Positions 2,733 through 64,000 of a stretch of DNA of 64,000 bases are shown one piece after another. Numbering within the stretch: position 1 is the stretch's first letter; each line of letters opens with the position of its first letter. Source of the stretch: Pseudomonadota bacterium (lineage in GTDB: Bacteria > Pseudomonadota > Gammaproteobacteria > Burkholderiales > Thiobacillaceae); contig JAUYFG010000312.1 of the NCBI GenBank assembly GCA_030690985.1, positions 14,208-78,207 of the forward strand. Reading direction: 5' to 3'. The position numbers were made by a program, and so were the translations under genes. The notes beneath the pieces were generated by a model. The model made no database searches, was not told the origin of the DNA, and saw nothing but the letters and a program-made list of their open reading frames with translations.

Positions 2733-5521
2733 TGCTCATGAAACGCCGCATCAGCCCATTCACTCGGGTGCTCCTGGCATTCGCCCTGCTGCTGGCGCTG
2801 GCTGGCTGTGGAAAACAGCATTTCACCACGGAAGAACACATCCAGCGCGCCAAGGATTTCTCCGCCGGCGGCAAGCACAAGGAAGTCATCATCGAACTGC
2901 GCAACGTCCTGCAACAGCAGCCTGACCATCCCCAGGGCAATCTGCTGCTGGCGGAGACCATCCTGAGAATGGGCAACCCCTTCCTGGCGGAGGCGGCCCT
3001 GAACAAGGCACGCCAGGTGGGGGTATCGGCCAAGGCCACGCAGATATTGATGGCCAGGGCACTCATGGCCCAGGGCCGTTTCGAGGATGCGCTGAAGGAA
3101 GCGAAGCTCGACGCCAACGAGCCGCTGGATAACCAGCTCGGCTACATGAATATGCGTGGAGAAGTACTGATGGGCCTGGCGCGTGTCGATGAATCATGCG
3201 CGCAGTTCGATGGCATGCGCCGCCTGCGAGCCGACTACCCCCCCGCCCTGCTAGGCCAATCCCGTTGCGCGGCAGCCAGGAATGACTTCGCGCTATCGCG
3301 AAAACTGGTTGACGAAGCGCTCCGACTTGATGCCGGACACACCGAGAGTTGGGTCCAGCTTGGCCATATGGAACGCGGCCAGGGCCATTACACCGAGGCG
3401 GAAACAGCCTATGGCAAGGCGCTGGCCATCCAGCCCGACGATGTCGACGCACTCATGGGACGTGCCATGGCACGTCTCAAACTGCGCAAGTACGACGCGG
3501 CCAGGAAGGATCTTGAAATCGCCCGTGCCACCATTCCAAGCAGCCCCTTTCCCACCCACATGCTCGGGATCGAGGCCTATTACCATGGCAATTACCGGGA
3601 AGCGAAGATTCATTTCCAGCGCGTGCTCAACGTCCTGCCGGACTATCTGCCAAGCATCTTCTGGCAAGGATTGACCGACCTCAACCTCGACAACGTGGAG
3701 CAGGCAGTCAAGGGGCTCTCCTACTACATGGTGCGCAAGCCCGACGACCAGACCGCCAAGGTGCTCCTGGCCTACGCCCAGGCACGCCAGGGCAACAAGA
3801 TTTCTGCGGAGAAGACCCTCAAGGCGCTGCGCAACCTCGGGCTGGAAGATGCGGCCGTGCTCAGCATGTCCGGGCAAACCTATCTGGCGCTGGGAAAACT
3901 GGAAGAAGCGCAACGATATCTGCGCGAGGCCCTGACGAAAGACCCGAGGAATGTAGAACTGAAACTCAGCCTCGCGGAGTCCCACCGGCAAAAACACGAG
4001 TACGAGGATTTTCTGCGGGAACTCAACGAGGCCGTGGCCCTGGAGCCGGCATCCATCCAGTTGCACAGCCAATATGCCCAGGCGCTCATCGCCCAGGGTA
4101 GAAAAGAGGCGGCCCGCAGCAAGATCGCCGAGATGCGCCGGCTGTTCCCCAAGAGTACTCAACCGCAGTATCTGGAAGCCTCCATGGCACTCAATGCGGG
4201 GGACAGAGCCGGTGCGCGGCAGGCCTTCGAGGACATGCTGAAGATCGATCCCGTGTCAGGCACCGCCTACATGAATCTGGCCCGCATGGATCTGCGCGAA
4301 GGCAAGGTCGAGCAGGCCAAGAAACGCTTCCTGGACCTACGCCGGCGCGATAGCAATAACTACACCGCCCTGATCGGACTTGCCGCCGTTTACTACGCGG
4401 TAAATGACCTCAAGGCGCAGCGGGAGTGGCTGGAGAAAGCGGTCAAAGCGAGGCCCCGCGCGCTCGAACCACTCCTGCTGCTGGCCAAGAATCTGCTGTC
4501 CACCGGCCAGGGCCAGCAAGCCCTTTCTCTCGCAACCCAGGCCTATCAGGCGGAACCGGCCAATCCTGCCACGCTGCAACTTCTGGCCGACGTCCAGAGC
4601 GCCAACGGCGCTCACGACAGCGCGCGTTCTTCCTACACCCGCCTGACCACCCTGACACCAGACGCACCGGTAGCCTGGTTCCAACTGGGACTTGCCCATG
4701 AACGAGCGGGCTTCCGTCAGGCATCCAAGGAAGCGCTACGGAAAGCAATCGAGTTGTCTCCCCGTTATCTCTATGCGCGCCTGGAACTCGCGCGCACCGA
4801 AGCCAAAGATGGCAACTTCAGCGAAGCCCACAGATTGGTAGCCGCGATCAAGAGCGACTCCCCCAAGTCGGCACCCGCTCATCTGCTCGCCGGCGACCTC
4901 TATTCCAGACAGAAAAAACCAGCCGAGGCGCTCAAGGAGTATGAGCAGGGCATGAGCATCAAGCCCTCAACCCAACTGGTCATGCGTACCGCCAGTGCGC
5001 TCCTGGCTCTGGGTAGAGGCGACGCGGCCGAAACCCTGTTACGGCAATGGCTGCAGAAACAGCCGGGGGATCAGATCGTGCGTCTCAACCTGGCAGGACT
5101 GCACGCAAGTACCAGGAAATACGAAGCCGCACTTTCGGAATATGAACAGATCAATCGTGCAGCCCCCAATCGGCCGGAAATTCTCAATGACATGGCCTGG
5201 CTGTACCAGAAGCTGGGAAATGCCACGCGCGCACTTTCGCTATCGGAGCATGCACATAAACTGGCCCCCGAGAACCCGATCTTCATGGACACCTTGGGTT
5301 GGATACTTTTGCAACAAGGTGGGCAGCGGCGGGCGCTCGACCTGCTGGGGAAGGCGGCCAAACTGGCCCCGAAACACCCTGCCATCCAGTACCACTATGC
5401 CGCAGCGTTAGCGCGCTCCGGCGACGTTGAGAAAGCGCGCCAGGTGTTACAACAACTGCTCAAAGTCGCGCCCTCCTTCCGCGAACGAACTGATGCGGAA
5501 ACCTTGTTGAAAGGGCTATGA
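2729..5521 (+). CDS. prsT: PEP-CTERM system TPR-repeat lipoprotein (PrsT-like paralog)
   Basis: 930-aa TPR array with a lipoprotein signal LLLALAGCGK. The start overlaps the upstream stop and is ambiguous (GTG 2729, ATG 2732 or ATG 2738). Confidence 0.8.
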   Translation: MMLMKRRISPFTRVLLAFALLLALAGCGKQHFTTEEHIQRAKDFSAGGKHKEVIIELRNVLQQQPDHPQGNLLLAETILRMGNPFLAEAALNKARQVGVSAKATQILMARALMAQGRFEDALKEAKLDANEPLDNQLGYMNMRGEVLMGLARVDESCAQFDGMRRLRADYPPALLGQSRCAAARNDFALSRKLVDEALRLDAGHTESWVQLGHMERGQGHYTEAETAYGKALAIQPDDVDALMGRAMARLKLRKYDAARKDLEIARATIPSSPFPTHMLGIEAYYHGNYREAKIHFQRVLNVLPDYLPSIFWQGLTDLNLDNVEQAVKGLSYYMVRKPDDQTAKVLLAYAQARQGNKISAEKTLKALRNLGLEDAAVLSMSGQTYLALGKLEEAQRYLREALTKDPRNVELKLSLAESHRQKHEYEDFLRELNEAVALEPASIQLHSQYAQALIAQGRKEAARSKIAEMRRLFPKSTQPQYLEASMALNAGDRAGARQAFEDMLKIDPVSGTAYMNLARMDLREGKVEQAKKRFLDLRRRDSNNYTALIGLAAVYYAVNDLKAQREWLEKAVKARPRALEPLLLLAKNLLSTGQGQQALSLATQAYQAEPANPATLQLLADVQSANGAHDSARSSYTRLTTLTPDAPVAWFQLGLAHERAGFRQASKEALRKAIELSPRYLYARLELARTEAKDGNFSEAHRLVAAIKSDSPKSAPAHLLAGDLYSRQKKPAEALKEYEQGMSIKPSTQLVMRTASALLALGRGDAAETLLRQWLQKQPGDQIVRLNLAGLHASTRKYEAALSEYEQINRAAPNRPEILNDMAWLYQKLGNATRALSLSEHAHKLAPENPIFMDTLGWILLQQGGQRRALDLLGKAAKLAPKHPAIQYHYAAALARSGDVEKARQVLQQLLKVAPSFRERTDAETLLKGL

Positions 5522-5592: not shown

Positions 5593-6804
5593 ATGGCGCG
5601 CACACGCGTCCTGTTTCTCGCAGAGGCGGTAACCCTGGCCCATCTGGCCAGACCCGTCGAACTCGCCTCGGGCCTGTCCAGCGCGGAGTATGAGATCACG
5701 CTGGCCTGCGACAGCCGTTACCGTTCCATCCTGGAGCGGTTGCCGTTCAAGACACTGCCCCTGCACTCACTGTCCAGCGAACGCTTCCTTGCCGCGCTCA
5801 CCCGGGGGCGACCGGTTTATGACAGCGAGACCCTGGAGCGCTATGTCAGCGATGACCTCGACCTGATCGACGCATTCAAACCGGATCTGGTGGTGGGGGA
5901 TTTTCGACTGTCCCTTTCCATCAGCGCGCGTCTGCGCCAGGTGCCCTACCTGGCCATCAGCAACGCCTACTGGAGCCCCTATGCGCGGCAAACCTGGCCC
6001 GTGCCCGCTCTGCCCTACCTCCGCTGGGCCGGCACGACCCTGGGTAGCGCGCTGTTCCGCCTGGCGCGCCCCATCGCCTTTGCGCTGCACACTCGTCCGC
6101 TGAACCGGGTAAGGCGGCGACATGGCTTGCCCTCCCTGGGGAACGATCTGCGCCGTGTCTATACCGACGCCGATTACACCCTGTATGCCGATGTGCCGGA
6201 ATTGACGCCGACCCGCGACCTCCCGGCCCATCACCGCTACCTGGGGCCCATCCTGTGGTCGCCCCCTGCCGCACCGCCGATCTGGTGGGACGCGCTTCCG
6301 GAAGGACTACCGCAGATCTACCTGACCCTGGGCAGTTCCGGGGCGCGTGAACTGCTCCCGACCATTCTCAACGCCCTGGCCAATCTGCCCGTGGCGATCA
6401 TGGTCGCCACGGCGGGCCATGCCACCTCCCTCTCGCACTGGCCGAACAACACGTTTCACGCCGATTATCTGCCCGGCTGTGAAGCGGCGGCCCGCTCCAG
6501 CCTGGTCATCTGCAACGGCGGCAGCCCAACCACCCAGCAGGCGCTGGCGGCTGGCGTGCCGGTCATCGGCATCGCCGGCAACCTCGACCAGCTTTTGAAC
6601 ATGCAGGCAATCACCGCCGCCGGCGCCGGCGCGCTGTTGCGTGTCGATGGCTTCAGCCAGCCTCGCCTCCTGCGCCTCGTGCAGACCTTGCTGAACGAAC
6701 CCCGCTATAAACAATCCGCCCGCCAGGTCAGCGGCTGGTTCGCCCACTATCCGGCACGACCGCGTTTCGCCCAATTGCTGGAGGAAATTCAGTCCTCCGG
6801 ATGA
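5593..6804 (+). CDS. GT1-family (MGT/UDP-glycosyltransferase-like) glycosyltransferase
   Basis: 403 aa. The C-terminal nucleotide-sugar motif region CNGGSPTTQQALAAGVPVIGIAGNLDQLLN is typical of GT-B MGT-type transferases. Confidence 0.65.
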   Translation: MARTRVLFLAEAVTLAHLARPVELASGLSSAEYEITLACDSRYRSILERLPFKTLPLHSLSSERFLAALTRGRPVYDSETLERYVSDDLDLIDAFKPDLVVGDFRLSLSISARLRQVPYLAISNAYWSPYARQTWPVPALPYLRWAGTTLGSALFRLARPIAFALHTRPLNRVRRRHGLPSLGNDLRRVYTDADYTLYADVPELTPTRDLPAHHRYLGPILWSPPAAPPIWWDALPEGLPQIYLTLGSSGARELLPTILNALANLPVAIMVATAGHATSLSHWPNNTFHADYLPGCEAAARSSLVICNGGSPTTQQALAAGVPVIGIAGNLDQLLNMQAITAAGAGALLRVDGFSQPRLLRLVQTLLNEPRYKQSARQVSGWFAHYPARPRFAQLLEEIQSSG

Positions 6805-6834
6805 GGCGACGCGACATTTCTCGAAGGAGGTTCC

Positions 6835-7500
6835 ATGCGCAAGATCAAGCCTGGCCAGGTTCTGGTGTTTTCCACGCTCCTGTCCCTCGCGATTGCCCTG
6901 GCGATCTTGTCTACCCAGTGGCTAGTAGGCGATCTCGGACTGGGAGATTTCCGCGGCATCATCCTGTTGGCGACGGGTGTCGGATTTCTTTACATCTATG
7001 CCATCGCCCTGTACCGCCTGCTCATGGCCCGGTTCCCCCTGTTGCCCGGCGAGGTGCGCCAAGACTCCCGCCAGGAGTTTATCTACCACGTCCATGTGCT
7101 GTTCTACCTGTTGCTGTTCTACCCGGTCATTCGTAGCGGCATTCCTCCCGCCCCGTTCATGCGCCTGTTCTACCAGGCACTGGGCGCCCGTCTCGGCAAC
7201 AACACCTACAGCCAGGGCATCATCCACGACCCGTTGTTCGTCAGCATTGGCCACGATTCCGTGGTGGGCCAGGGCGCGCTGCTGATCCCCCATGTCATCG
7301 AAGGCGATCGGCTCGCCCATTACCCCATCCGCATCGGCGACCACGTCACCATCGGCGCCAACGCCGCCGTGCTCTCGGATGTGGAAATCGGCGACCACGC
7401 CATCGTCGCCACCGGCGCCGTGGTGAAGAAGGGCAGCCGCATCGGCGCCCATGAAGTCTGGGGCGGGGTGCCGGCCCGCTGCATCAAGCGGCTGCAATGA
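6835..7500 (+). CDS. Membrane-anchored hexapeptide-repeat (LbH) acyl/acetyltransferase
   Basis: GGAGG lies upstream of the ATG. The N-terminal ~110 aa are hydrophobic (about 3 TM segments). The C-terminal half has left-handed beta-helix hexapeptide repeats (IRIGDHVTIGANAAVLSDVEIGDHAIVATGAVV). Confidence 0.75.
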   Translation: MRKIKPGQVLVFSTLLSLAIALAILSTQWLVGDLGLGDFRGIILLATGVGFLYIYAIALYRLLMARFPLLPGEVRQDSRQEFIYHVHVLFYLLLFYPVIRSGIPPAPFMRLFYQALGARLGNNTYSQGIIHDPLFVSIGHDSVVGQGALLIPHVIEGDRLAHYPIRIGDHVTIGANAAVLSDVEIGDHAIVATGAVVKKGSRIGAHEVWGGVPARCIKRLQ

Positions 7501-7542: not shown

Positions 7543-8715
7543 TCAGGTACGGCGGCGAGTGAAACTGAAGCCCAGCCCGAGCAGCCCGACACCCAACAGC
7601 GCCAGGGTGGCCGGCTCGGGAATGACGTCGGGAAGCGGTGCCTGGTATTGCGAGCTCACACTCGAGTTGAAGTCCACCTGGCCGACTATGTCAGGCCCTC
7701 CATTGAAGCCTGGGGTACAGGTCGTGTTGGCAGGCAGTGGAACCGGGCAACTCGTTGCATAAGTGGTTACGGGAAAAGTGCCGAAGCCAGGAACCGTGAC
7801 TATCGTGACAATCTTGTTCAAACCGCCGTTCACCTCGCCCGTCACGGGGAGCAGCCCCTGCCCCAAGCCCGGCACGGGCTGTGCCGAAAAGGGGCCATTT
7901 ATGTGACCAGTGGCGCACTGCGGCGCAGAGTTGGCACCACCAATGGCAGCTGTACCCGGATTGGGCGTATAGCAATCCGAGGGATCATTAGTGGCAAACG
8001 GGATGATCATGCCGGTGTTGGAGTAGGTGATCGAAAAACCCGTTTGCCCGGCATGGAAGAAATTCTGGTCGAAGGCCATGCCGGTAGTACCGATTTGCAT
8101 GGAAGATTGCGCGCTGTAGCCACTGATCGATAACTGTCCGGGGTAGTCGTTGCCGTTATTGGTCGTGTCGAGATTGCCCGGAGATGCGTTCGTGAGGGTA
8201 AACGTGCCGGTGGAAGCGCCGCCGCCGGGCTGTGCGACGCCGGACGCACGCAGGATCAATATGCCGTTGTCAAAGCCTGACCCGGAAAGGACGTCGCTGT
8301 CCGGGGTGCTGTCGTAATACATCTCCAGCCAGCCCACACCCGTGGTGGCGAATTGGGCGTAGGTAGAGGTGCCCAGCGTGGAGACCGTCACCTCCGTGAT
8401 CACCTCGGTGAAACGGGCCACCATGGTGATCTCGCCCGCAGTCGGGTTGCTGGCAAGCTTTGCATGGGTCAGGCCAACGAATTCGTGTGGGGTATCGATG
8501 TCAAAGTCAGCCAAATAGTCGTTTAGCCAGCTGGCGATCGCCTGATTGCCGCCCAGGGCAAGAAAACTTGAGCCGGACCAGTCCAAACCACCACCGGAAA
8601 GATTCACAGCCGCCTGGCCACCCGTGCCGTCGTAGTCGAATACCAGCGCGGCCTGGGCACCACCCGCGATGGCCAAGCTGGCAGCCACCAAAGTTGAAAG
8701 CAGATTCTTGCGCAT
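7543..8715 (-). CDS. PEP-CTERM sorting-domain secreted protein (possible flocculation-type substrate)
   Basis: N-terminal signal peptide (AIAGGAQA). The C-terminus VIPEPATLALLGVGLLGLGFSFTRRRT has the PEP motif, a TM helix and a basic tail. The body is rich in Gly, Thr and Ser. AGGAAAG RBS. Confidence 0.9.
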   Translation of the reverse strand: MRKNLLSTLVAASLAIAGGAQAALVFDYDGTGGQAAVNLSGGGLDWSGSSFLALGGNQAIASWLNDYLADFDIDTPHEFVGLTHAKLASNPTAGEITMVARFTEVITEVTVSTLGTSTYAQFATTGVGWLEMYYDSTPDSDVLSGSGFDNGILILRASGVAQPGGGASTGTFTLTNASPGNLDTTNNGNDYPGQLSISGYSAQSSMQIGTTGMAFDQNFFHAGQTGFSITYSNTGMIIPFATNDPSDCYTPNPGTAAIGGANSAPQCATGHINGPFSAQPVPGLGQGLLPVTGEVNGGLNKIVTIVTVPGFGTFPVTTYATSCPVPLPANTTCTPGFNGGPDIVGQVDFNSSVSSQYQAPLPDVIPEPATLALLGVGLLGLGFSFTRRRT

Positions 8716-8775
8716 TTTCTTTCCTTGAATGTGTTCGTTGATCTGTGGCCGCGCTACTGGGCCTGGCCTATATAA

Positions 8776-8791
8776 AGCAAGCTACGTGCCA
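8776..8791 (-). promoter_or_regulatory. sigma54 (-24/-12) promoter for the PEP-CTERM protein gene
   Basis: The minus strand reads TGGCACG-TAGC-TTGCT, an exact match to TGGCACG-N4-TTGCW. It lies about 60 nt upstream of the ATG at 8715, in an AT-richer intergenic region. Confidence 0.65.
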
Positions 8792-8928
8792 TCCATCAAC
8801 GTGCCCCGTAAGCCTTTGTTCCATCTGGGACTATCCAGTGCCACCGAGAAATTCTCGGGCTCGCTCGTCGCAAATGTAAAGAAATCCGACAAGGCGTGGG
8901 CAGCCGTTCCAGGTATCAGTTTTTCTAT

Positions 8929-10008
8929 TCAGTTATGAATAAGGAGCCCACCTAAGGGCTTGCGCAGGGAGCGTGCACGGGGCGCGGGGCCGTGCCCGAT
9001 CCGACCCATGAAGAACAGCGCGTCGGCATCACTCAGGCCGGGCATCCGGAGCAGCCGTCGATTCAGGTCGCGCGCGAGGCGCAGGGCGGGTTCGGTCTGG
9101 GTGAAGGTGATCCCGCGTCGGGCATAGCGGCTGAAGATGACCGGTGTCATTTCCGGCTGGATGAACAGGCCAAGGCGGTCGGCAGTCAGCCAGAAACGTT
9201 GCATTGCACGCCCCGCCGCGATGTGGTCGTCCACCTGGACAAGGGGTTTGTCGGCACACAACATGAAGTGCGCGGCACAAAGAAAACCGGGGACAAGATC
9301 AAGTTGCAGGCGGGGCGGGATATGCCCAAAGAGATATTTGTTGAAAAACGCAACGCGTTCCCATCGCTGCATGACCCAGCGCATGAAACGGCTGGTCAAG
9401 GCATCTACACCGACCGCCGCGTCCGGAATCCGATCTTCGCTGTACCTCGCCCCCCATTCGATCACGGCACGATGCACGGCGTAGGCTTCGGGAATGGTCA
9501 GGCGGATTTTGGCGTTGTCGAACATGAATTTCGCCAGGCGCCAGCGCTCACCGGCACCCTCGAACCAGACCACCCGGTAGCCGGCGGGCAGAGCGTCGGC
9601 CAGCGCGCTTTTCTGCTGGGCGGTCAACGCGGTGGTGGACATGGCCCGGCGCTGTACCACGCGGGTCTTGATGTGTGGAACCAGCGGGTCCGACGCGAGA
9701 TCGGCCAGGACGCGCAAATGCACATCAAACAACAGGTGGGTGTCGGGCGTTCCGGGCCTGCGCTGGATTTCGGTAATCCGCCCGGTGGAGGTCGCCGCTA
9801 TCGCCAGAGTTTCCAGCAGGGCGCCGACGGCCAGTTGGCTGGGATGGCCATCCAGGTCGTAGACCACATGGTCACGCGTGTCGAAGCCATGGATCAGCAC
9901 CTGCTCGTCGCCCAGAATCTCGAATGCCCAAGGTTGGGTGTTGTCGCCGCTGGGCGCCCAGCGGGCCAGATCCAGAATGTGTTCGAGATGGGACGGAAGC
10001 GACTTCAT
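8929..10008 (-). CDS. Two-domain nitroreductase-superfamily (Acg-like FMN-binding) oxidoreductase
   Basis: The N-terminal motif LARWAPSGDNTQPWAFEI is typical of the nitroreductase fold, and ~359 aa is twice a single domain. Start chosen at MKSLPSH, 1 nt after the ThiF-like stop. The longer tracked ORF (to 10230) overlaps the ThiF-like gene. Confidence 0.7.
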   Translation of the reverse strand: MKSLPSHLEHILDLARWAPSGDNTQPWAFEILGDEQVLIHGFDTRDHVVYDLDGHPSQLAVGALLETLAIAATSTGRITEIQRRPGTPDTHLLFDVHLRVLADLASDPLVPHIKTRVVQRRAMSTTALTAQQKSALADALPAGYRVVWFEGAGERWRLAKFMFDNAKIRLTIPEAYAVHRAVIEWGARYSEDRIPDAAVGVDALTSRFMRWVMQRWERVAFFNKYLFGHIPPRLQLDLVPGFLCAAHFMLCADKPLVQVDDHIAAGRAMQRFWLTADRLGLFIQPEMTPVIFSRYARRGITFTQTEPALRLARDLNRRLLRMPGLSDADALFFMGRIGHGPAPRARSLRKPLGGLLIHN

Positions 10009-10009
10009 C

Positions 10010-10867
10010 TCACAGCCCGAGTTGTCGCCTGGCAAGCGCGATGGCCAGGCGGTTGATCGGGTGCCGATTGCCGCCAGGACGCCAGGTGTGGGCCATGCGG
10101 TTGCGGTAGCCGTCGAACTGAATGCCGTGCGGCGCGGCCCAGACCTTGCCGCGTCCGAGCAATATCTTGAGTGCTTCGGTCGCCGCGACGCCGGCGCACA
10201 ACGTACAGGCCATGACCGTGGAGGGACCACGATGCTCGCCGAGGTTGACTCGGCCGGGATCGGCCAGATAGACGCGGTGCAGCAGGGCGGGCGCCAGGCC
10301 GACCAGGAAGCGCAGTGCCTTTTCCTGTTCCGGGTGGCCCGCGAGCTGAAAATAGCGCTCGAAGCTCATCTGTCCGGGCAGAAAGTTGAGCAACGCCGCG
10401 CTCATCCCCAGGGGGGCAACGGTCGTGGCGGGAATCCGCTGTTCGGCGCAGTACCTGAACACCGCTTCCCTGGCCTGGAAGGCGAAGAAGTCGAGGCCGT
10501 CGACATAGAGGTCTACCCCCTTCATGAACTCGCCCAGGTTCTCGGCGTTCACGCCTTGCGGAAAGATCGTGATGTCGCAGTCCGGGTTGATGTCCCTTGC
10601 CATCTGGACAAGGACTTCGGCCTTGGGCCGGTCGATACTGGAGAGGGTGGCCCCGGCTTGACGGTTGAAATTGGCCAGCTCGAAGGTGTCGAGGTCGGCA
10701 ATGTGAAAGTGCTGTATGCCGAGGCGTGCCAGGGTCAGGAGGTGGAAACCACCGACGCCGCCCATACCGGCAATGGCGACGCGCTTTTGTGCCAGTAATT
10801 GCTGTTCGGCCTCGGTTACCCAGCCGATATTGCGGGAAAAGGCGGTGCTGTAATCAAAGAGGGGCAT
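10010..10867 (-). CDS. ThiF/MoeB/HesA-family E1-like adenylyltransferase
   Basis: Rossmann loop VAIAGMGGVGG and E1 motif DLDTFELANFNRQ. ATG at 10867; the tracked start at 10873 is TTG. Confidence 0.8.
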   Translation of the reverse strand: MPLFDYSTAFSRNIGWVTEAEQQLLAQKRVAIAGMGGVGGFHLLTLARLGIQHFHIADLDTFELANFNRQAGATLSSIDRPKAEVLVQMARDINPDCDITIFPQGVNAENLGEFMKGVDLYVDGLDFFAFQAREAVFRYCAEQRIPATTVAPLGMSAALLNFLPGQMSFERYFQLAGHPEQEKALRFLVGLAPALLHRVYLADPGRVNLGEHRGPSTVMACTLCAGVAATEALKILLGRGKVWAAPHGIQFDGYRNRMAHTWRPGGNRHPINRLAIALARRQLGL

Positions 10868-51002: not shown

Positions 51003-51386
51003 ATGACCATGACCAAGACCATCATCGCCACCCCCTCCGCGCCCGCCGCCATCGGCACCTACTCCCAGGCCGTCAAGGTGGGGAATACCGTCTACCTCTC
51101 CGGCCAGATCGGCCTTGATCCGGTCAGTATGCAACTGGTGGAGGGCATCGAAGCGCAGATTCACCAGGTGTTCGGCAACCTGGGCGCCGTCGCGATCGCC
51201 TCTGGCGGCACGCTCGCCGATGTGGTCAAGCTCAACCTCTTCCTGACCGACCTCGGCCATTTCGCCAAGGTCAACGAAATCATGGCGCAGTACTTCGTCC
51301 AGCCCTACCCGGCACGCGCCGCCGTCGGCGTCGCCAGCCTGCCGCGCGCCGCGCTGGTGGAAGCGGACGCGGTGATGGCCCTCTGA
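51003..51386 (+). CDS. ridA: RidA/YjgF-family reactive-intermediate deaminase
   Basis: [12 protein letters not shown]...[11 protein letters not shown]...[17 protein letters not shown]. Confidence 0.9.
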
Positions 51387-51518
51387 TTTCGGATATTCGA
51401 TTTCGGATTTGCGATTTCGGATTTGACCGGTGACCGCTAACTCCAACATCCGAAATCCGAAATCCGAAATCCGAAATCGGACGAAATCCGAAATCCGAAA
51501 TCCGAAATCCGAAATCGA
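51385..51518. repeat. Heptanucleotide-repeat palindrome (ATCCGAA / TTTCGGA units)
   Basis: The left arm has 5 inverted units (3 perfect TTTCGGA). A 23-nt spacer follows. The right arm is 4 x ATCCGAA, a 10-nt variant, then 4 x ATCCGAA. Confidence 0.9.
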
Positions 51519-57908: not shown

Positions 57909-58646
57909 CTACTCGATCTCGTCGAGCAATTCTCTTTCCAGCAAACTCAACTCACGCCCGGCCAACAGATCCGGGCGCCGCTTACGCGTTCTATCCAGCG
58001 CCTGCTTCAGCCGCCAGCGGACGACGTCGGCATGATTGCCGGAACGCAGCACATCCGGCACCTTGTGCCCCAGGTAGTCCTCGGGCCGCGTGTAGTGCGG
58101 GCAATCCAGCAAACCGTCGGCAAAGGAGTCTTCCTCGGCCGAATCCGCATGCCCCAATGCCCCGGGGATGCGGCGTATCAATGCATCCAGCAACACCATC
58201 GCCGGCAACTCGCCACCGGACAACACGTAGTCGCCGATGGAGACTTCTTCCAGCAGGTGGCGCTCGTACAAGCGCTCGTCGATACCTTCGTAGCGCCCCG
58301 CCAGCAAAACCAACGCGGGCGCGGCACCCAGTTCTTCCACCAGGCTCTGATCCAGCTTGCGGCCTTGCGGCGACAGGTAGATCAGCCGTGGCGCCAGGCC
58401 TTCCCGGCGCAAGGCAGTTTTCGCCGCCGTCAACGCCAGGTCCAGCGGCTCGGCCAGCATCACCATGCCGGGGCCACCGCCGAACGGCCGATCATCCACC
58501 GTGCGGTAGTTGTCCTGCGTGAAGTCCCGGGGGTCCCAGAATTTCACGGAGCACAACGCTTTCTTTACTGCCCTGCCGCTGACACCGTAGCCCGTGAGCG
58601 CGGCGAACATCTCGGGAAACAGGGTAACAACGTGATAACTCGGCAT
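57909..58646 (-). CDS. trmD: tRNA (guanine37-N1)-methyltransferase
   Basis: VVTLFPEMF..., [22 protein letters not shown]. Confidence 0.95.
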
Positions 58647-58650
58647 CACC

Positions 58651-59202
58651 TTAATAATCCAGACCCCACTCCACCACGATGCGCCTGGCCGCCATGTCCA
58701 CCTCGCGGACAAAGGCATCGACGAAGGGAATCAGCCGTTCCCGTTCGCCCTGGATCTGGAGTACATCATGGGCGCCGGTGGCCAGCAGCGCATCCACTTT
58801 GCCGAGCACAGCCCCTTCACCATTCACCACTTCCAGGCCGATCAGATCGTCCCAGTAATACTCACCTTCCTCGGCTACCGGCCGGTCCTCGCGCGGCACC
58901 GCGATGTCCATACCCGTCACGGCCTCGGCGGCATCCCGATCGTCCATCCCTTCCAGGTGGGCAAGCAGGTATTGCCCGTGCACCTTGCCCTCGACCAGGC
59001 GGAACGGGCGCCATTGGCCCTTCCTGCCCACATGCCAGAGCGGGTAGTCCAGCAGGCTGTCGATGTACTCGGTTTGCGTCTGAATCCTGACCCAGCCACG
59101 TATCGCATAGGGCGCGGAGATCCGCCCCATCACCACCAGAGCGTCCTCACCCGGTTTCTGACCATCGAGCGGTACGCCGCTCTCGGTGGGAACGCGCTTC
59201 AA
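58651..59202 (-). CDS. rimM: 16S rRNA processing protein RimM
   Basis: [15 protein letters not shown]...PRC-barrel C-terminus. Located in the rpsP-rimM-trmD-rplS order. Confidence 0.9.
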
Positions 59203-59207
59203 GGCAA

Positions 59208-59453
59208 TCAGGCGGCAACTTTGACGTGCACGATACGAGTCACGGTGTCGGAAGCCTGGGCGCCGACGCCTTGCCAGTAAGCCAGACGCTCGCGGTCGAT
59301 GCGCAAGGTCTCGGAGTTGCCGGAAGCGAGGGGGTTGTAGAAGCCGATGCGTTCGATGAAGCGGCCATCACGACGGTTGCGGGAATCCGCCACCACGATG
59401 TTGTAGAAGGGGCGCTTCTTGGAGCCGCCACGGGCAAGACGAATGGAGACCAT
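59208..59453 (-). CDS. rpsP: 30S ribosomal protein S16
   Basis: [34 protein letters not shown]. Confidence 0.95.
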
Positions 59454-59598
59454 GTTTAATCTGTCCTATGTATCTGATGAAACACCCGAAAAACCGGGCA
59501 GGAAACCCGTGGGAAGCCCACACGGAAAAGCCGCGCATTGTACGTGAACCGAAAGATCATTCCAAGCGGCTGTTTTAGCGAAGGAATTCGATGGTCGG

Positions 59599-60948
59599 CT
59601 AGCGCATCCCCGGCATCATGCCCTTCATGCCGCGCATCATCTTGGACAGGCCGCCCTTGCCCATCGACTTCATCATCTTCTGGGCCTGTTCGAACTGGGT
59701 GAGCAGGCGGTTGACGTCCTGCACCTGGACGCCCGAGCCGGTGGCGATACGGCGTTTGCGCGAAGCTTTCAGCAGGGCGGGATTGCGTCGTTCGGCGGGG
59801 GTCATGGCATTGATGATGCCTTCGATGCGGCGCATCTGTACTTCCCCCTGGGCGATTTCGCCGGCGCCGATCTTGCCGGCACCCGGCAGCTTGTCCATCA
59901 GGGAAGAGAGGCCGCCCAGTTTTTTCATCTGCTGCATCTGCGACTTGAAGTCTTCCAGGTCGAAGCCCTTGCCGCTCTTCAGCTTCTGCACCGTTTTCAG
60001 CGCTTCCTCGTGGTCCACCGCCTTGTGCGCTTCCTCGATCAGAGAGAGCACATCACCCATGCCGAGCACGCGACTGGCCATGCGTTCGGGGTGGAACACC
60101 TCGATGCCGGAGAGCTTTTCACCGACGCCCACCAACTTGATCGGCTTGCCGGTGATGTGGCGCACCGACAGCGCCGCACCACCGCGCGCATCGCCATCCA
60201 GCTTGGTGAGGATGATGCCGGTGAGCGGCAGCGTGTCGTTGAAGACCTTGGCGGTGTTGACCGCGTCCTGGCCCTGCATGGCGTCCACCACGAACAGGGT
60301 TTCGATCGGCTTCAGGAAGGCGTGCAGATCCTTGATCTCGTCCATCATCGCCGCATCCACATGCAGGCGGCCGGCGGTATCGACGATCAACACATCGTAG
60401 AAATGCTTCTTCGCGTAATCCAGCGCAGCACGGGCGATGTCGAGCGGCTTCTGCTCCGGGCTGGAGGGAAAGAAATCGGCCTCGGCCTGGGCGGTCACCA
60501 GCCTCAACTGTTCGATGGCGGCGGGACGGTAAACGTCGCAGCTCACCAGCAGAATCTTCTTGCGCCCCTGCTCGCGGATGACGCGCACCAATTTGCCCGA
60601 GGAGGTGGTCTTGCCGGCGCCCTGCAAGCCCGCCATCAGGAACACGGCGGGCGGCTGCATGGCGAAGGACAGCGGCGCGGCCTGCTCACCCATCAAATAA
60701 GTGAGTTCCTTGTGCACCACGCCGATCAGCATCTGACCAGGCGTCAGGCTCTTCAGTACATCCGCGCCCATCGCCTTTTCTTTCACGCGGGCGATGAAAT
60801 CGCGCACCACCGGCAAGGCCACATCGGCCTCCAGCAGGGCCACGCGCACTTCGCGCAGGGCGTCCTGGACGTTGGCTTCGGTCAGGCGCCCCTGGCCACG
60901 CAGATTCTTGACGACATGGGAAAGGCGCTGGGTAAGGTTGTCGAACAT
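59599..60948 (-). CDS. ffh: Signal recognition particle protein Ffh
   Basis: GLQGAGKTT, DTAGR, TKLDGDARGG, and a Met-rich M domain. Confidence 0.95.
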   Translation of the reverse strand: MFDNLTQRLSHVVKNLRGQGRLTEANVQDALREVRVALLEADVALPVVRDFIARVKEKAMGADVLKSLTPGQMLIGVVHKELTYLMGEQAAPLSFAMQPPAVFLMAGLQGAGKTTSSGKLVRVIREQGRKKILLVSCDVYRPAAIEQLRLVTAQAEADFFPSSPEQKPLDIARAALDYAKKHFYDVLIVDTAGRLHVDAAMMDEIKDLHAFLKPIETLFVVDAMQGQDAVNTAKVFNDTLPLTGIILTKLDGDARGGAALSVRHITGKPIKLVGVGEKLSGIEVFHPERMASRVLGMGDVLSLIEEAHKAVDHEEALKTVQKLKSGKGFDLEDFKSQMQQMKKLGGLSSLMDKLPGAGKIGAGEIAQGEVQMRRIEGIINAMTPAERRNPALLKASRKRRIATGSGVQVQDVNRLLTQFEQAQKMMKSMGKGGLSKMMRGMKGMMPGMR

Positions 60949-61028
60949 GATGGTTTAGGGCGTATGGGATAGACTGGCGCAGTTTATCAGTCAACCCGAA
61001 GCCCACCACGGCCCTGCCTCATACGCCC

Positions 61029-61832
61029 ATGTCGGACCCCATCCTCTACACGCTCTGCATCCTGGCTTATCTAGTGCTGGCCACCTGGTTCTGGCCGGGG
61101 CGTCCGGGTTGCTGCCGCATGGACTGGGTACCGCGCCTGCTGCCGGTGCTTCCCCTGGTTCTGCATCTCTATCTGCTGAACGCCGGCGTATTCGAAGGCC
61201 AGGGCATCCATCTCGGCTTCTCCACCTCGATTTCCGCCGTTGCCGCCCTCTCGGTGATGACCTACGCCGTGGCCTCATGGCGTTACCACCTGGCCGGGTT
61301 GCAGGGCTTCGTACTGGCCTTCGCCGGGGTGGCGGTGGCCATCGAGGCCATTTCTCCCGTGTCTCATGCCGCCATACACAGCGACATGCCGGCCTTCCAG
61401 TTGCACCTGGCGGTCGCCTTCGCCGCCTACGCCCTGTTCACCATCGCCGCCCTGCACGCCCTGCTCATCGCCCTGGCGGAAAAGCACCTGCACAAGGCGG
61501 TGCCGCCCACCATCGTCGCCGACCTGCCGCCGCTGCTCACCCTGGAAAAACTGCTGTTCCGCATGATCCAGGCCGGCTTCGTCCTGCTCACCCTGACCCT
61601 GGCCTCGGGTGTCCTGTTTTCCGAAGAAATCTTCGGCAAGGCCCTGCCCTGGAACCACAAGACGGTATTCGGCATCGCCTCCTGGCTGATCTTCGCCTCG
61701 CTCCTCCTCGGCCGCCGCTTTTATGGCTGGCGCGGACGCACCGCCATCCACTGGACCCTGGCCGGTTTCATCAGCCTGATGCTCGCCTACGTCGGGGTGA
61801 AGTTCGTGCTGGAAGTGCTGTTGGGGCGCTGA
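61029..61832 (+). CDS. Cytochrome c assembly family inner-membrane protein (YpjD/CcsA-like)
   Basis: Eight hydrophobic segments. Divergent from ffh, as is commonly seen for ypjD. Confidence 0.7.
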   Translation: MSDPILYTLCILAYLVLATWFWPGRPGCCRMDWVPRLLPVLPLVLHLYLLNAGVFEGQGIHLGFSTSISAVAALSVMTYAVASWRYHLAGLQGFVLAFAGVAVAIEAISPVSHAAIHSDMPAFQLHLAVAFAAYALFTIAALHALLIALAEKHLHKAVPPTIVADLPPLLTLEKLLFRMIQAGFVLLTLTLASGVLFSEEIFGKALPWNHKTVFGIASWLIFASLLLGRRFYGWRGRTAIHWTLAGFISLMLAYVGVKFVLEVLLGR

Positions 61833-61846
61833 ACCGCAGGTAGCGC

Positions 61847-61923
61847 GTAGGAGCGGGCTTGCCCGCGATAGCCACCGTTGCTTCGCGGGCATACCCTCAA
61901 GGGGCACAAGAGCCCGCTCCCAC
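61847..61923. repeat. REP palindrome (GTAGGAGCGGGCTTGCCCGCGA family)
   Basis: GTAGGAGCGGGCTT...AAGAGCCCGCTCCCAC. The right half recurs at 36962-37011. Confidence 0.8.
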
Positions 61924-61930
61924 GACACGC

Positions 61931-62248
61931 TCAAACCAGGCGGGTGAGCAACCCCAGTTCACACGGCCACACCGCCAGTTCCGCATCCGACAACACCACG
62001 CCTTCCGGCAGGCGCTCGGTCAGACGCAACACCAGGGCGGAATCGCCCACTCGCAGTGCCACGGCCACCCGGTTCACCGGCACCGCAACCCCCAGCAAAC
62101 GACTCAGAAACAACGCCGCGCCCGCATGGCCGATGGCCGAAATAAAGCCGCTCGCCACCCGATCACGCGCCTCATCGAGCGCCAGCGGCCCCGAAAAACG
62201 CCAATCGCCGTAGGCCGTGAGCACGGGGGAATTGAGCAGATACAGCAT
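61931..62248 (-). CDS. DUF1874 (STIV B116 / AcrIII-1 / Crn2-like) small protein
   Basis: 105 aa. N-terminal YLLNSPVLT strand, central SAIGHAG motif (the conserved Gly-His of the family), and NRV.V.L..GD...V..L..RL.EG..L pattern. Confidence 0.6.
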
Positions 62249-62251
62249 GGA

Positions 62252-63031
62252 TCACATCGCCCCGGCGGCGGCATACAAGTCTTGCAACACCTGCCGCATA
62301 TCCGCCGGCAACCGTCCCCAGGCCGCCTGAGCCAGTTCCTCCGGCACACCGAAGCGCGCCTCCGCCACGCCACCACAGATCGCCGCAAGGGTGTCGGAAT
62401 CACCCCCAATGGAAATCGCGTTGCGAATCGCATCCTCGAAATCCGTCGCCTCCAGCGCGCAAACCAGCGCCTGCGGCACGCTGCCCTGGCAAGTCTCGTC
62501 GAACGTGTAATGAGGGCGGATGGCGTCCACCGTGGCGGAAAGGTCATAGCCATAGGTTTCCGTCACCGCCGCGCGGATGTCCTCCGCCCCCGCCCCCTGG
62601 CGCGCCAGAAAAATTGCCGTGGCCGTGGCCGCCGCGCCCTTCAAGCCTTCCGGATGGTCATGGGTCGCCGCCGTGACATGATCGGAAAACCGCACCACCT
62701 CGGCCAGATCGCGCCCCAGCAACCCCGCCGGCGACACCCGCATCGCCGCCCCATTGCCGAAGCTGCCATAGGGCGCTGTCTCGTCGGAAAACAGCCAGCG
62801 GGAAAAGCGCCCGCCCCAGCTCACATTCGGATAACGCCGCCCCCAATCCTTGAACGCCTCGGCCGGCGGGCGATGGTTGAGCAAGGCATCCGCCACCGCG
62901 ATGGTCAGCACCGTGTCATCGGTGAAAAACGCACGCGGCGCGACCAGGGGCTGAAAGTCCTTGGTCTTGACGTTGTTCCATTCGTAAACCGAACCGACGA
63001 TGTCACCGAAGATGGCGCCGAGCATGGGCAA
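62252..63031 (-). CDS. ADP-ribosylglycohydrolase-family protein
   Basis: GDIVGSVYEW, FTDDTVLT and GGDSDTLAAICGG are the metal-binding Asp motifs of the ARH/DraG fold; 259 aa. Confidence 0.8.
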   Translation of the reverse strand: MPMLGAIFGDIVGSVYEWNNVKTKDFQPLVAPRAFFTDDTVLTIAVADALLNHRPPAEAFKDWGRRYPNVSWGGRFSRWLFSDETAPYGSFGNGAAMRVSPAGLLGRDLAEVVRFSDHVTAATHDHPEGLKGAAATATAIFLARQGAGAEDIRAAVTETYGYDLSATVDAIRPHYTFDETCQGSVPQALVCALEATDFEDAIRNAISIGGDSDTLAAICGGVAEARFGVPEELAQAAWGRLPADMRQVLQDLYAAAGAM

Positions 63032-63176
63032 CCTCCATCAAGTGATTTCCAGTTGTTCCAGCCAGGCGGTGAGGGCGGCACTCAAAGGGAGCCGTCGCAT
63101 TGATGCCGAAGCGGAGATCGACAAGCGCGGTCATGCTAACCTCCGTATTACGATGTAACACAAACAGGAACCCCTC

Positions 63177-63395
63177 ATGCAAACCACCCTGACCGTGCGT
63201 CTGTCGGAAAAAGAGACGAAAGACCTGCAAGCAATCTGCGAGATGACCGGAAAAAGCCGCAGCCAAGTGGTGCGTGATGCCTTGTGCGCCCGACTTTTTC
63301 GTGAGCGTCTGGACGCCCTGCGCGCCATTGCGGTGCCCCGCGCCCAGGAGGCAGGCCTCCTGACCGAGGAAGACGTTTTCCGCGAAGTATCGTGA
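63177..63395 (+). CDS. Ribbon-helix-helix (CopG-like) antitoxin
   Basis: TLTVRLSEKETKDLQAICEMTGKSRSQVVRDAL; 4-nt overlap with the downstream PIN gene. Confidence 0.75.
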   Translation: MQTTLTVRLSEKETKDLQAICEMTGKSRSQVVRDALCARLFRERLDALRAIAVPRAQEAGLLTEEDVFREVS

Positions 63396-63790
63396 GGGTC
63401 TTCCTTGATACCAATGTCTGGTTCAGCGCGGTGGCGACACCAGGTTTGTGCGAGGTACTGACCAAACAATTGTTCGAGGCAAACGAGGTGCTCGGCAGCG
63501 AACTCGTGTGGGCGGAATTGTCCGACTTGCTGGTCCGCAAACTCAGGTTTTCGAGCGAGGAGATCGCACTCGCGCAAGCGATGTTCGATGAAGTCGAACT
63601 GATTTCCGATGTTCCGGCCCCCGCCGACGACAACGACGCCCGCCTGGTGGCTGCCGCCGTCGCGGCAAGCGCCGATCTGTTCGTGACCGGCGACAAGCGG
63701 GTGCTGGGCTGGAAGCAGTCGGGCAACCTGCGCATCGTCACCCCGCGCGAGGCGTGGATCATTTTGTTTGCGCCGCATCTGAAGCACTGA
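63392..63790 (+). CDS. PIN-domain toxin
   Basis: VFLDTNVW N-terminal acidic motif, DDNDARLVAAA, and FVTGDKR near the C-terminus. Confidence 0.75.
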   Translation: MRVFLDTNVWFSAVATPGLCEVLTKQLFEANEVLGSELVWAELSDLLVRKLRFSSEEIALAQAMFDEVELISDVPAPADDNDARLVAAAVAASADLFVTGDKRVLGWKQSGNLRIVTPREAWIILFAPHLKH

Positions 63791-63834
63791 GGGCGACGGC
63801 GAACGGGCGCGCCAGTTGAGCATGGCGAGTTCTT

Positions 63835-64000
63835 TCAGTCATTGCCTGCAAAACCGAGCAAGACAATGAGGTTGCTCTGTTGGCTCACTTTGACGGCAAC
63901 GTTCTTGAGTTCCTTGTCTTTCTTCAGTTTGTTCGCGCGGTCGCCCAAGGCTATGCGCAGGGCATCTGCCTCGGAGCCCTTGAGGCCGGCGGTGGTTCTG
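63835..64000 (-). CDS. 3' end of an unidentified ORF running out of the window
   Basis: The minus-strand frame is open from the window edge to TGA at 63835-63837 (…ALRIALGDRANKLKKDKELKNVAVKVSQQSNLIVLLGFAGND). No family recognised. Confidence 0.3.
   Translation of the reverse strand, partial: RTTAGLKGSEADALRIALGDRANKLKKDKELKNVAVKVSQQSNLIVLLGFAGND

Follow-up and report, generated by a model that had tools for sequence, protein, structure and literature searches.

Ring nucleases of the DUF1874 family have been described from cellular type III CRISPR-Cas systems as Crn2 and from viruses as AcrIII-1. The Crn2 domain of the Marinitoga protein Csx1-Crn2 (PDB 8y7f/8y7g) belongs to the same Pfam family and shares the fold as well as the His and RxxE residues with a 105-aa protein encoded in the window, as we call the whole stretch of 64,000 nucleotides analysed here. 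As for cellular Crn2, genes of the window type are situated at the 3'-end of a type III effector operon and are accompanied by cA4-type effectors in related loci. In contrast to the Marinitoga protein, the window Crn2 is stand-alone and unfused, belongs to a proteobacterial clade and is preceded by a gene for an ADP-ribosylglycohydrolase (ARH). The viral AcrIII-1 proteins SIRV1 gp29 (6scf), AFV3-109 (2j6b) and STIV B116 (2j85) have the fold (TM 0.80-0.82) and the catalytic motif in common with the window protein, whereas the gene in the window has a chromosomal, CRISPR-linked location and its product is only 38-45% identical to the copies of phages and archaeal viruses. Csx16 (Cas_VVA1548, TIGR02620) is also a small stand-alone type III ring nuclease and occupies the same position behind an ARH gene in one of the loci discussed below (L104). 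The PADLOC profile matching the window Crn2 carries the name 'Csx16', but Csx16 shares no detectable sequence similarity with the window protein, which is not matched by PF09652.

The second protein of the module belongs with ARH3, DraG and Tri1 (PF03747). It shares their all-alpha ARH fold and acidic di-metal site, although it is shorter, with 257 aa compared to about 300-360 aa. An ARH-fold eraser in phage defence is known from DarHTG, in which the antitoxin DarG3 is ARH3-like and is paired with a DarT DNA ADP-ribosyltransferase (PMC13069673). Unlike DarG3, the window ARH has no adjacent DarT-like toxin or helicase; its neighbors are cas genes.

Both genes are encoded on the minus strand and are separated by 3 nt (62249-62251), with the ARH gene upstream. 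The crn2 gene extends over positions 61931..62248. Its product matched PF08960 (STIV_B116-like) over residues 2-92 with an E-value of 9.9e-23 (80.6 bits, cut-off 26), and the PADLOC cas profile PDLC01147 covered it over its full length (E 1.7e-42). A phmmer search against PDB sequences identified AFV3-109 (5e-14), STIV B116, Csx1-Crn2 and the AcrIII-1 structure 6scf, and the AIGH and RLxEG motifs lined up in the alignments. The SAIGH motif of the window protein was aligned to SAIGH, NAIGH and SIGH of AFV3-109, B116, 2x4i and Csx1-Crn2, and its RLPEG motif to RLPEG and RLEEG of the PDB relatives. The predicted active site comprises the catalytic His41 together with Arg79 and Glu82 of the RLPEG motif, and all three residues were invariant across an alignment of 25 sequences of the DUF1874 clade. 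His41 is aligned with the catalytic His of AcrIII-1 and Crn2, presumably His47 in SIRV1 gp29. An AF2 model of the monomer (pLDDT 88.6) resembled 2j6b (TM 0.80), 6scf (TM 0.82) and 8y7g (TM 0.78-0.82) in a Foldseek search, and the next unrelated match already had an E-value above 3. By family membership, the window Crn2 is predicted to cleave cA4.

The ARH gene was assigned to positions 62252..63025 on the minus strand, encoding 257 aa from an ATG at 63025. The reading frame is also open from a TTG at 63031 (62252..63031). The ATG is the more likely start, since a GGAGG Shine-Dalgarno sequence is located six nt upstream of it and the identical gene on contig L001 was called with 257 aa. The protein matched PF03747 (ADP_ribosyl_GH) with an E-value of 4.3e-33 (115.7 bits, cut-off 26.2), and its matches in the PDB include ARH3 and DraG. 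E15, T35-D36-D37, H122/H124/E126 and G207-G208-D209-x-D211-T212 are invariant residues. Foldseek searches with the AF2 model (pLDDT 94.7) resulted in TM-scores of ~0.8 to ARH3, MJ1187, Tri1 and DraG. With invariant acidic residues at the metal site and a modelled fold like that of ARH3, the enzyme is predicted to be catalytically intact. It scored far below the equivalog cut-offs of DraG (TIGR02662; 42.4 bits vs a cut-off of 337) and Tri1 (NF041672; 27.8 bits vs a cut-off of 490), and no DraT, nitrogenase or Tre1 partner was found near it in the window neighborhood. The Pfam search revealed no CARF or SAVED sensor domain in the protein. ARH and crn2 are very probably co-transcribed and probably translationally coupled. 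The features that a preliminary description had read from the letters of this module were borne out: the two ORFs with their spacing, the GDIVGS, FTDDT, GGDSDT and SAIGHAG motifs and both domain assignments. Two checks proposed there, the alignment of the DUF1874 His with the catalytic His and the superposition on AcrIII-1 structures, also gave positive results.

The same description had reported that the window contains no type III CRISPR gene and had suggested that the module could be an orphan anti-defence cassette or a part of an undescribed system. This view did not hold. Positions 63835..64000 on the minus strand constitute the 3'-end of cmr6, a type III-B RAMP gene, with the last 54 codons and the stop codon inside the window and the remainder beyond it. 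When translated, 63835-63999(-) gives exactly the C-terminal residues of a 482-aa RAMP encoded on L001, a 4.9-kb Logan contig that shows 100% identity to window positions 61891-64000 and then continues into cmr5 and cmr4; of the source locus, only cmr4, cmr5 and cmr6 are visible, on this contig. cmr6 is located 1.6 kb from crn2 and is cut by the window end at base 64000. A syntenic relative (L005), the Crn2 of which is 91% identical to that of the window, provides the order cmr1-cas10(GGDD)-cmr3-4-5-6-[PIN/RHH]-ARH-DUF1874-ccsA-like-ffh. Its cmr1-6 set is complete and the GGDD cyclase motif of its cas10 is intact. Since the cmr operon abuts the ARH-crn2 module and its last gene enters the window, the premise of an orphan cassette fails, and the apparent lack of a cognate signalling system is an artefact of the window edge. 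Neither a CRISPR array nor a CARF gene was found in the window or in the flank of L005. The finding that had originally been flagged is thereby mostly explained as a Crn2 gene beside a type III-B system cut by the window end.

A scan of species-representative genomes with one peptide pattern yielded 57 species-level loci of a single proteobacterial DUF1874 clade, with Thiobacillus/Hydrogenophilales, Chromatiaceae and Accumulibacter among the hosts. Type III core genes were present in 37 of the 44 informative genome loci and some cas or CARF gene in 42 of these; as the cas genes were called by single-pass phmmer searches with Pfam-verified seeds, divergent ones may be undercounted. CRISPR arrays were found in 22 of the DUF1874 loci (21 non-duplicate). 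In relatives, genes for cA4-type effectors adjoin the DUF1874 gene, namely Card1 (e.g. in L008), Csx1 and CARF_TM. The latter is a protein of ~295 aa encoded beside DUF1874 in 13 loci; it had been considered as a divergent ARH or macro-type enzyme and turned out to be a membrane CARF effector. A search of 2.9 million viral contigs recovered not a single member of the clade, and matches of the window DUF1874 protein to phage and plasmid proteins reached at most 52% identity. Based on the type III core genes in the clade loci and the absence of the clade from the viral contigs, the 105-aa DUF1874 gene is Crn2, an already known kind of type III ring nuclease. The idea of a signal reset, which had also been put forward for the module, fits this gene. 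Of the cellular ring nucleases, Crn2 has been reported to be the rarest, with a count of 7 loci across complete RefSeq genomes (PMC12409355). Our 57 loci of one clade, nearly all CRISPR-linked, suggest a far higher frequency in MAGs, and in environmental Beta- and Gammaproteobacteria Crn2 is probably much more widespread than this count implies.

Two further elements bracket the module. Between cmr6 and ARH, a pair of genes in inverted orientation is encoded on the plus strand and is identified as a type II toxin-antitoxin pair by its domain matches, all above their cut-offs. It consists of an RHH (CopG/RelB-like) antitoxin of 72 aa (63177..63395; PF01402, E 9e-8) and a PIN_3 toxin of 132 aa (63392..63790; PF13470, E 2e-8; TIGR00305, 35.5 vs a cut-off of 29.15), with the stop of the former overlapping the start of the latter by 4 nt. 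We regard this toxin-antitoxin module as lodged within the type III-B locus. It occurs at the same position in L005. The divergent intergenic region of 151 nt between ARH and RHH (63026..63176) presumably holds the promoters of both two-gene units, judging from the gene layout; no match to the sigma-70 consensus was found across 61700-64000. On the other side, a GC-rich REP-like compound hairpin (61846..61928; dG -59.5 kcal/mol, z -5.8) directly follows the crn2 stop codon. It is likely to act as a terminator or mRNA-stabilizing element and to form the boundary to the ccsA-like gene on the plus strand (61029-61832). The preliminary description had named an RHH-PIN module and a REP element as the brackets. 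The former and a strong hairpin were found, but the label 'REP' is not backed by repetition, as the 19-mer core of the hairpin has a single copy in the window. Two copies are located at the same site in L005, and L006 lacks a stretch of ~150 nt that holds the hairpin.

Members of the ARH clade, which share at least 69% identity, occur within or adjacent to type III genes in 9 of the 13 distinct contexts examined, a small sample picked by how long the contigs were. These nine contexts, one of which is that of the window and L005, differ in architecture and represent two subtypes. The type III-linked loci are mostly III-B, with at least one III-A/D: in L009/L068 the ARH-crn2 pair is located behind a III-A/D csm operon. 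In L104 the order is cmr6-ARH-csx16-card1-cad1, and ARH and csx16 overlap by 4 nt. ARH often directly precedes a ring nuclease gene, which is crn2 in the window and csx16 elsewhere. Further type III contexts are represented by L066, L107, L109, L112 and L110/L111, to which the context of L070 is probably equivalent. The ARH genes are co-directional with the cas genes, at a distance of 45-115 nt to cmr1 in some loci. CARF proteins encoded at the ARH loci comprise Card1, Csx1, Cad1 and a member of the CARF5 family. In a neighbor-joining tree without bootstrap support, the ARHs of type III loci formed one clade separate from the non-CRISPR ARHs, and the ARH of L110 was placed in a neighboring clade. 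We also considered the Csx16 of L104 as a diverged DUF1874 protein, i.e. one inherited pair of ARH and ring nuclease; no sequence similarity was detectable. The folds of Csx16 and DUF1874 proteins have been reported to be distantly similar (PMC12409355).

This recurrent embedding of the clade in type III loci is the basis for reading ARH as a type III accessory gene. The module is probably best explained by a stand-alone ring nuclease, Crn2, of a chromosomal type III-B locus together with an ARH as a candidate accessory enzyme of this locus. The wider proposal that the monophyletic clade of short ARHs belongs to type III CRISPR-Cas loci of proteobacteria as an unrecognized accessory component is put forward tentatively, as a possibility falling somewhat short of an even chance. 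In the literature searched, no link of an ARH to type III CRISPR or DUF1874 was found. The main texts of the type III accessory-gene censuses searched contain no ADP-ribose-processing enzyme, and none is listed among the type III accessory genes of the PADLOC profile set.

The ARH may, on the other hand, simply be a neighbor in a defence island, a self-sufficient eraser of ADP-ribose without any tie to Crn2 or cyclic oligoadenylate (cOA), with Crn2 still acting as a ring nuclease. It could, for example, be an orphan antitoxin-like enzyme against ADP-ribosyltransferases of phages or mobile elements that has lodged at differing junctions within type III loci in the manner of toxin-antitoxin pairs. 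The distribution of the gene is in line with this: the adjacency of ARH and DUF1874, the conservation of which had been proposed as a check, is restricted to the nearest relatives, with DUF1874 identities of 74% or more. The lack of co-occurrence in other genomes, named in the preliminary description as a ground for refutation, thereby largely applies to the pair as such. ARH is internally deleted or truncated in three relatives with intact crn2 (L007, L010, L011) and missing in two in which crn2 directly follows cmr6 (L008 and L012). The remaining ~50 Crn2 loci have no ARH either, and ARH is not an obligate partner of Crn2. The wider ARH family, with more than 8000 matches, is frequent in viral contigs and is found in settings other than CRISPR loci as well. 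Relatives are encoded beside PARG, TIR and BREX genes, in a VWA/AAA_5/WYL island of Azoarcus, among housekeeping genes, on plasmids and in phages. Furthermore, toxin-antitoxin modules of several families occupy the same junctions, with pairs of other families at the position of the RHH-PIN pair in L112 and within the cmr operons of L107 and L110. The missing sensor domain is consistent with an independent role, and DarG3 sets a precedent for a stand-alone ARH-fold eraser in defence (PMC13069673). Against a mere neighbor, nine of the 13 contexts of the clade are type III loci with varied architectures and two subtypes, and their ARHs group together in the tree. The co-directional orientation and tight spacing (3 nt to crn2, the 4-nt overlap with csx16, 45-115 nt to cmr1) and the presence of a type III or CARF gene at all nine loci also argue against it. 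We consider an unconnected ARH unlikely, at roughly one chance in a handful. The original theme of a pair of ARH and DUF1874 survives in an altered form, in which the ARH clade itself recurs inside type III loci.

Far less probable is an autonomous mobile cassette of two erasers, possibly derived from a phage or mobile element, in which AcrIII-1 destroys cA4 and ARH destroys ADPR-derived signals. Such a cassette would account for L013, where a PIN/RHH-ARH-crn2 block of 1.85 kb (86% nt identity) is flanked by genes for a MerR/B12 regulator and for a U32 peptidase and has no cas gene within 10 kb, a case that also counts against our preferred explanation. The pair on a different type III subtype in L009/L068 likewise suggests that it moves as a unit, and viral relatives exist for both protein families. 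Against this stand the cmr operon abutting the module and the cas or CARF genes in nearly all informative loci, as well as the distance of the viral DUF1874 proteins and the lack of any clade member in viral contigs. Moreover, the best 80 viral ARH loci have no DUF1874 or cas neighbor, and the locus is flanked by the housekeeping genes ffh and ccsA-like, with no integrase or transposase seen. A two-step breakdown of one undescribed signal from this Cas10 lineage by ARH and ring nuclease, e.g. of an ADP-ribose-containing or ribosyl-linked compound, would be in keeping with the order of ARH and then ring nuclease at near-zero spacing with two families lacking sequence similarity (Crn2, and Csx16 in L104), but it is the least credible reading, given that nothing points to a non-cOA signal, that the neighboring effectors Card1, Csx1, CARF_TM and Cad1 are of the standard cA4 type, that four architectures have ARH without an adjoining ring nuclease, and that ARH chemistry, which concerns glycosidic ADP-ribosyl bonds, is not known to play a role in cOA turnover.

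With ARH as an accessory gene of the type III-B locus, the following course of events can be envisaged from the families involved. Upon binding of target RNA, Cas10/Cmr2 would produce cA4, which would switch on CARF effectors such as the Card1, Csx1 or membrane CARF proteins of related loci. A Crn2 dimer would cut cA4 to linear A2>P via His41 and so turn off the response. The ARH would remove ADP-ribose in a metal-dependent manner from a protein or nucleic-acid acceptor. No ADP-ribosyltransferase acting as a 'writer', either CARF-fused or neighboring, was found among the genes annotated at the ARH loci. Our preferred guess is that ARH undoes ADP-ribosylation of the CRISPR machinery or of host targets by ADP-ribosyltransferases of phages or mobile elements.

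If the link between ARH and type III loci is functional, the question will be what becomes ADP-ribosylated in type III immunity or counter-immunity, and the ARH is a small, soluble enzyme. By analogy to AcrIF11, it may guard the Cmr machinery or host targets against anti-CRISPRs of phages that are ADP-ribosyltransferases. Alternatively, with the ring nuclease as its partner, it may form the second half of a 'reset' module of two enzymes. In either case, the association of this ARH clade with type III loci would tie ADP-ribosylation to cOA-based immunity.

The DUF1874 gene crn2 (61931-62248, minus strand, 105 aa) lies 3 nt from a second minus-strand gene encoding an ADP-ribosylglycohydrolase-fold protein (ARH, 62252-63031 if read from a TTG codon). 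An ATG at 63025 is the likelier ARH start, because it has a GGAGG six nt upstream and because the resulting 257 aa are the length called for the identical gene on an independent assembly, the Logan contig L001. Both domain assignments of the preliminary description were confirmed by Pfam well over the gathering scores (PF08960, STIV_B116-like/DUF1874, E 9.9e-23; PF03747, ADP_ribosyl_GH, E 4.3e-33), as was the RHH-PIN flank (RHH PF01402; PIN PF13470 and TIGR00305), a typical toxin-antitoxin (TA) pair with a 4-nt overlap at 63177-63790. At the site of the proposed REP element, 3' of the DUF1874 stop codon, a very stable compound hairpin was found (dG -59.5 kcal/mol, z -5.8), but a single copy of its core is present in the 64-kb window, so that the REP label is plausible only.

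The two genes had been described as a module with no cognate signalling system nearby. This headline is an edge artefact, since the window ends 165 nt into a type III-B locus. The 4.9-kb contig L001, which encodes a protein identical to the window DUF1874 protein, matches window 61891-64000 at 100% identity and runs 2.8 kb further; past the PIN gene it encodes a 482-aa RAMP protein (Cmr6), Cas_Cmr5 and another RAMP protein (Cmr4). The translation of window 63835-63999 (minus strand) represents the final 54 residues of this Cmr6. In a related MAG (L005), whose DUF1874 and ARH proteins are 91% and 94% identical to those of the window, the order is cmr1-like, cas10/cmr2, cmr3, cmr4, cmr5, cmr6, an inverted PIN-RHH pair, ARH, DUF1874, ccsA-like and ffh, set between the same housekeeping genes as in the window. 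Its Cas10/Cmr2 comprises Cmr2_N and palm2 with an intact GGDD. From the continuation on L001 and the synteny with L005, the flagged feature is Crn2 with an accessory ARH, and this module forms the 3' end of a type III-B CRISPR-Cas locus. The statement that the window holds no type III, CARF, CBASS or Thoeris gene fails at the cmr6 3' end but stands elsewhere: the rest of the 64 kb yielded neither a CRISPR array nor any cas, CARF, CBASS or Thoeris gene. The adjoining housekeeping run (57909-61832) comprises trmD, rimM, rpsP and ffh, all on the minus strand and named from their translated sequences, and a Pfam-verified ccsA-like cytochrome c assembly gene on the plus strand; the ffh/ccsA-like part of this junction flanks crn2 also in L005, L006 and L007. 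Elsewhere in the window, a tandem array of about nine copies of the heptanucleotide ATCCGAA and a neighboring 14-nt repeat (51385-51516) were located between two plus-strand ORFs.

Searches with phmmer against PDB sequences matched the DUF1874 protein to AFV3-109 (5e-14), STIV B116, SIRV1 ORF114, the Crn2 domain of Marinitoga Csx1-Crn2 and AcrIII-1 6scf. Its SAIGH motif aligns with (S/N)AIGH of these matches, placing its histidine on the catalytic one, and RLPEG aligns with RLPEG/RLEEG; H41, R79 and E82 are invariant in 25 clade members. The AlphaFold model (pLDDT 88.6) superimposed on 2j6b, 6scf and 8y7g with TM 0.78-0.82, and no unrelated structure appeared below E = 3. By sequence and model alike, the protein is a genuine homologue of the ring nucleases. 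In PADLOC, the cas profile PDLC01147 ('Csx16') covers it end to end (E 1.7e-42), so the DUF1874 family is already within CRISPR accessory profile sets. The protein gave no match to Pfam Cas_VVA1548, and no similarity to true Csx16, from locus L104, was detected; the 'Csx16' label of PDLC01147 is a mixture of two families.

A pattern scan of species-representative genomes yielded 57 loci of the DUF1874 clade, 44 of them informative (5 kb or more to one side), in which cas neighbors were sought by phmmer with Pfam- and PADLOC-verified cas proteins as seeds. Type III core genes were present in 37 of the 44 and any cas or CARF gene in 42; only in L013 and L039 was no cas or CARF gene found. DUF1874 usually follows cmr6 directly or stands before or after a protein of about 295 aa, and Card1 and Csx1 are also frequent neighbors. 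CRISPR arrays occurred at 22 loci (21 with the duplicates L004 and L014 counted once). The ~295-aa protein, which directly adjoins crn2 in 13 loci (e.g. L002 9077-9958 and L004 10315-11214), had no significant Pfam match and matches PADLOC CARF8--CARF_TM (E 4e-54 to 4e-72); it is a membrane-anchored CARF protein, a Cam1-like effector of cyclic tetra-adenylate (cA4) paired with the ring nuclease. No member of the window's clade was found among 2.9 million viral contigs, and DUF1874 proteins of phages and archaeal viruses show 38-45% identity only. By definition the window gene counts as Crn2 and not as AcrIII-1. In a 2025 survey of complete genomes only 7 type III loci had Crn2, which was termed the rarest ring nuclease (PMC12409355); our MAG-rich sample suggests that Beta- and Gammaproteobacteria carry it far more often than that count implies.

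The adjacency of ARH and DUF1874 was largely not upheld across genomes, and the two are conserved as a pair only narrowly. According to tblastn, a full-length ARH stands beside DUF1874 only where the latter is at least 74% identical (window/L001, L005, L006, L009, L013). Alignment to L005 8400-10318 revealed three independent internal deletions that removed most of ARH and left DUF1874 intact (L007, L010, L011); cmr6 is truncated too in L011, and some Thiobacillus-like genomes show the CRISPR locus in decay. DUF1874 comes straight after cmr6 in L008 and L012. ARH deleted or absent beside an intact DUF1874 indicates that it is dispensable for Crn2. Two findings point in the opposite direction. 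The same pair follows a III-A/D locus in L009 and L068 (Cas10 with HD and Csm1_B, Csm4, Csm5). In L013 a 1.85-kb PIN/RHH-ARH-DUF1874 block (8471-10313; 86% nucleotide identity to L005), either relocated or a remnant, has a MerR/B12-binding regulator on one side and a U32 peptidase on the other, and no cas gene was found in the 10 kb flanking it in each direction. The different subtype and the cas-free setting show that the pair can move as a unit. The III-A/D locus of L009 also carries a RhuM/Fic-domain gene (5825-7105, 426 aa) between csm4 and csm5.

In its fold and its invariant acidic and metal-site residues the ARH matches active ARHs, and it scores far under the DraG and Tri1 equivalog cut-offs. 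Its wider family comprises more than 8000 matches, many at 64-73% identity across Proteobacteria. We surveyed the contexts of its nearest relatives (64% identity or more) on usable contigs, counting also the window, L009 and L013; type III loci made up 9 of 13 distinct contexts. These included cmr6-ARH-csx16-card1-(194 aa)-CARF_ADA/Cad1 with a 4-nt ARH/csx16 overlap (L104/L105, ARH 79%), ARH-cmr1-cas10-cmr3-4-5-6 (L109, 74%), cmr4-5-6-[inverted PIN/Phd TA]-ARH-csx1-card1-cas2-cas1-array (L112, 73%), csx1 fragments-ARH-cmr1-cas10 between two cmr loci (L107/L108, 71%), CARF-DUF2130-ARH-cmr1-cas10-cmr3 (L110/L111 and apparently the same in L070, 70%) and DUF2130-ARH-MNT/HEPN-Uma2-csx1-card1 (L066, 69%). 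Non-CRISPR contexts were ARH-PARG alongside TIR and BREX genes, an Azoarcus VWA/AAA_5/WYL island and a housekeeping setting in Methylomarinovum. In a neighbor-joining tree without bootstrap, the CRISPR-linked ARHs formed one clade apart from the non-CRISPR ones, with the L110 ARH in an adjacent clade. No cas neighbors were found for more distant metagenomic ARHs (at most 57% identity), and no DUF1874 or cas neighbor at the best 80 viral ARH loci. The ARH clade itself thus appears to be linked to type III loci. PADLOC holds no profile for this ARH, no paper found by direct full-text searches linked ARH with type III CRISPR or DUF1874, and the main text of two accessory-gene censuses does not mention it.

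The gene immediately before ARH in L066 (4379-5764) and L110 (1701-3074) encodes a DUF2130 protein of about 460 aa, a second recurrent ARH neighbor; in L070 (55-1308) a 417-aa ORF occupies the corresponding slot. In L104 the 194-aa ORF between card1 and the Cad1-like CARF-adenosine deaminase gene (4494-5078) has a weak NUDIX match only (E 0.03). An ARH with 73% identity to that of the window is tightly paired with a PARG_cat_C protein on L106 (1041-2863) and on a JGI contig of 35 kb; TIR_2 and BrxC/PglY-like genes adjoin these two putative erasers, whose setting is a defence island of non-CRISPR type. The proteins P0207 and P0222 (433 aa) are ARH-Macro fusions (PF03747 and PF01661) with an ARH part 66% identical to the window ARH. 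Plasmids and phages carry ARH relatives up to 57% identical, and viral contigs often encode members of the short-ARH family (349 relatives, 46-57% identity; loci including L113-L192). In Bacteroides phage Versailles (L193 4001-4774), ARH lies within a run of small early-type genes beside a DNA methyltransferase, a setting suggestive of counter-defence.

Mechanistically, the relevant observations are the identities of the genes, their fold matches and conserved catalytic residues, the physical linkage to the cmr operon, the cyclase-competent Cas10 (GGDD) of L005 and the cA4-type effectors in related loci. Judging from the families, target-RNA binding would cause Cas10 to make cA4, which would activate CARF effectors (Athukoralage et al. 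2020 and reviews). A Crn2 dimer would then cut cA4 to A2>P and reset the cell. This cleavage would proceed through His41. ARH and crn2 are probably co-transcribed from a 151-nt divergent region that they share with the TA pair, and their 3-nt spacing suggests translational coupling.

The ARH is expected to hydrolyse an ADP-ribosyl linkage. It may act as a constitutive eraser that reverses ADP-ribosylation imposed by invader ADP-ribosyltransferases; we favor this role because ARH tracks the cmr core genes regardless of the effector or ring nuclease present and has no sensor domain. AcrIF11 is a precedent for anti-CRISPRs of the ADP-ribosyltransferase type. For defence by erasers of the ARH fold, the ARH3-like DarG3 antitoxin provides one (PMC13069673). 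As the main rival, ARH would be a mere defence-island lodger, comparable to the TA modules at the same junctions. TA pairs from several families (MNT/HEPN, PIN/RHH, PIN/Phd) have lodged again and again within or at the end of cmr operons, often inverted (L107 5456-6176; L110 9391-10090 and 11371-11926; L112 2950-3562; and the window pair). A shared substrate of ARH and the ring nuclease is possible, gene order being the one observation that points to it. The window Crn2 belongs to an already known ring-nuclease family. The association of ARH with type III loci is recurrent and uncatalogued, which makes the locus a reasonable lead for experimental work.
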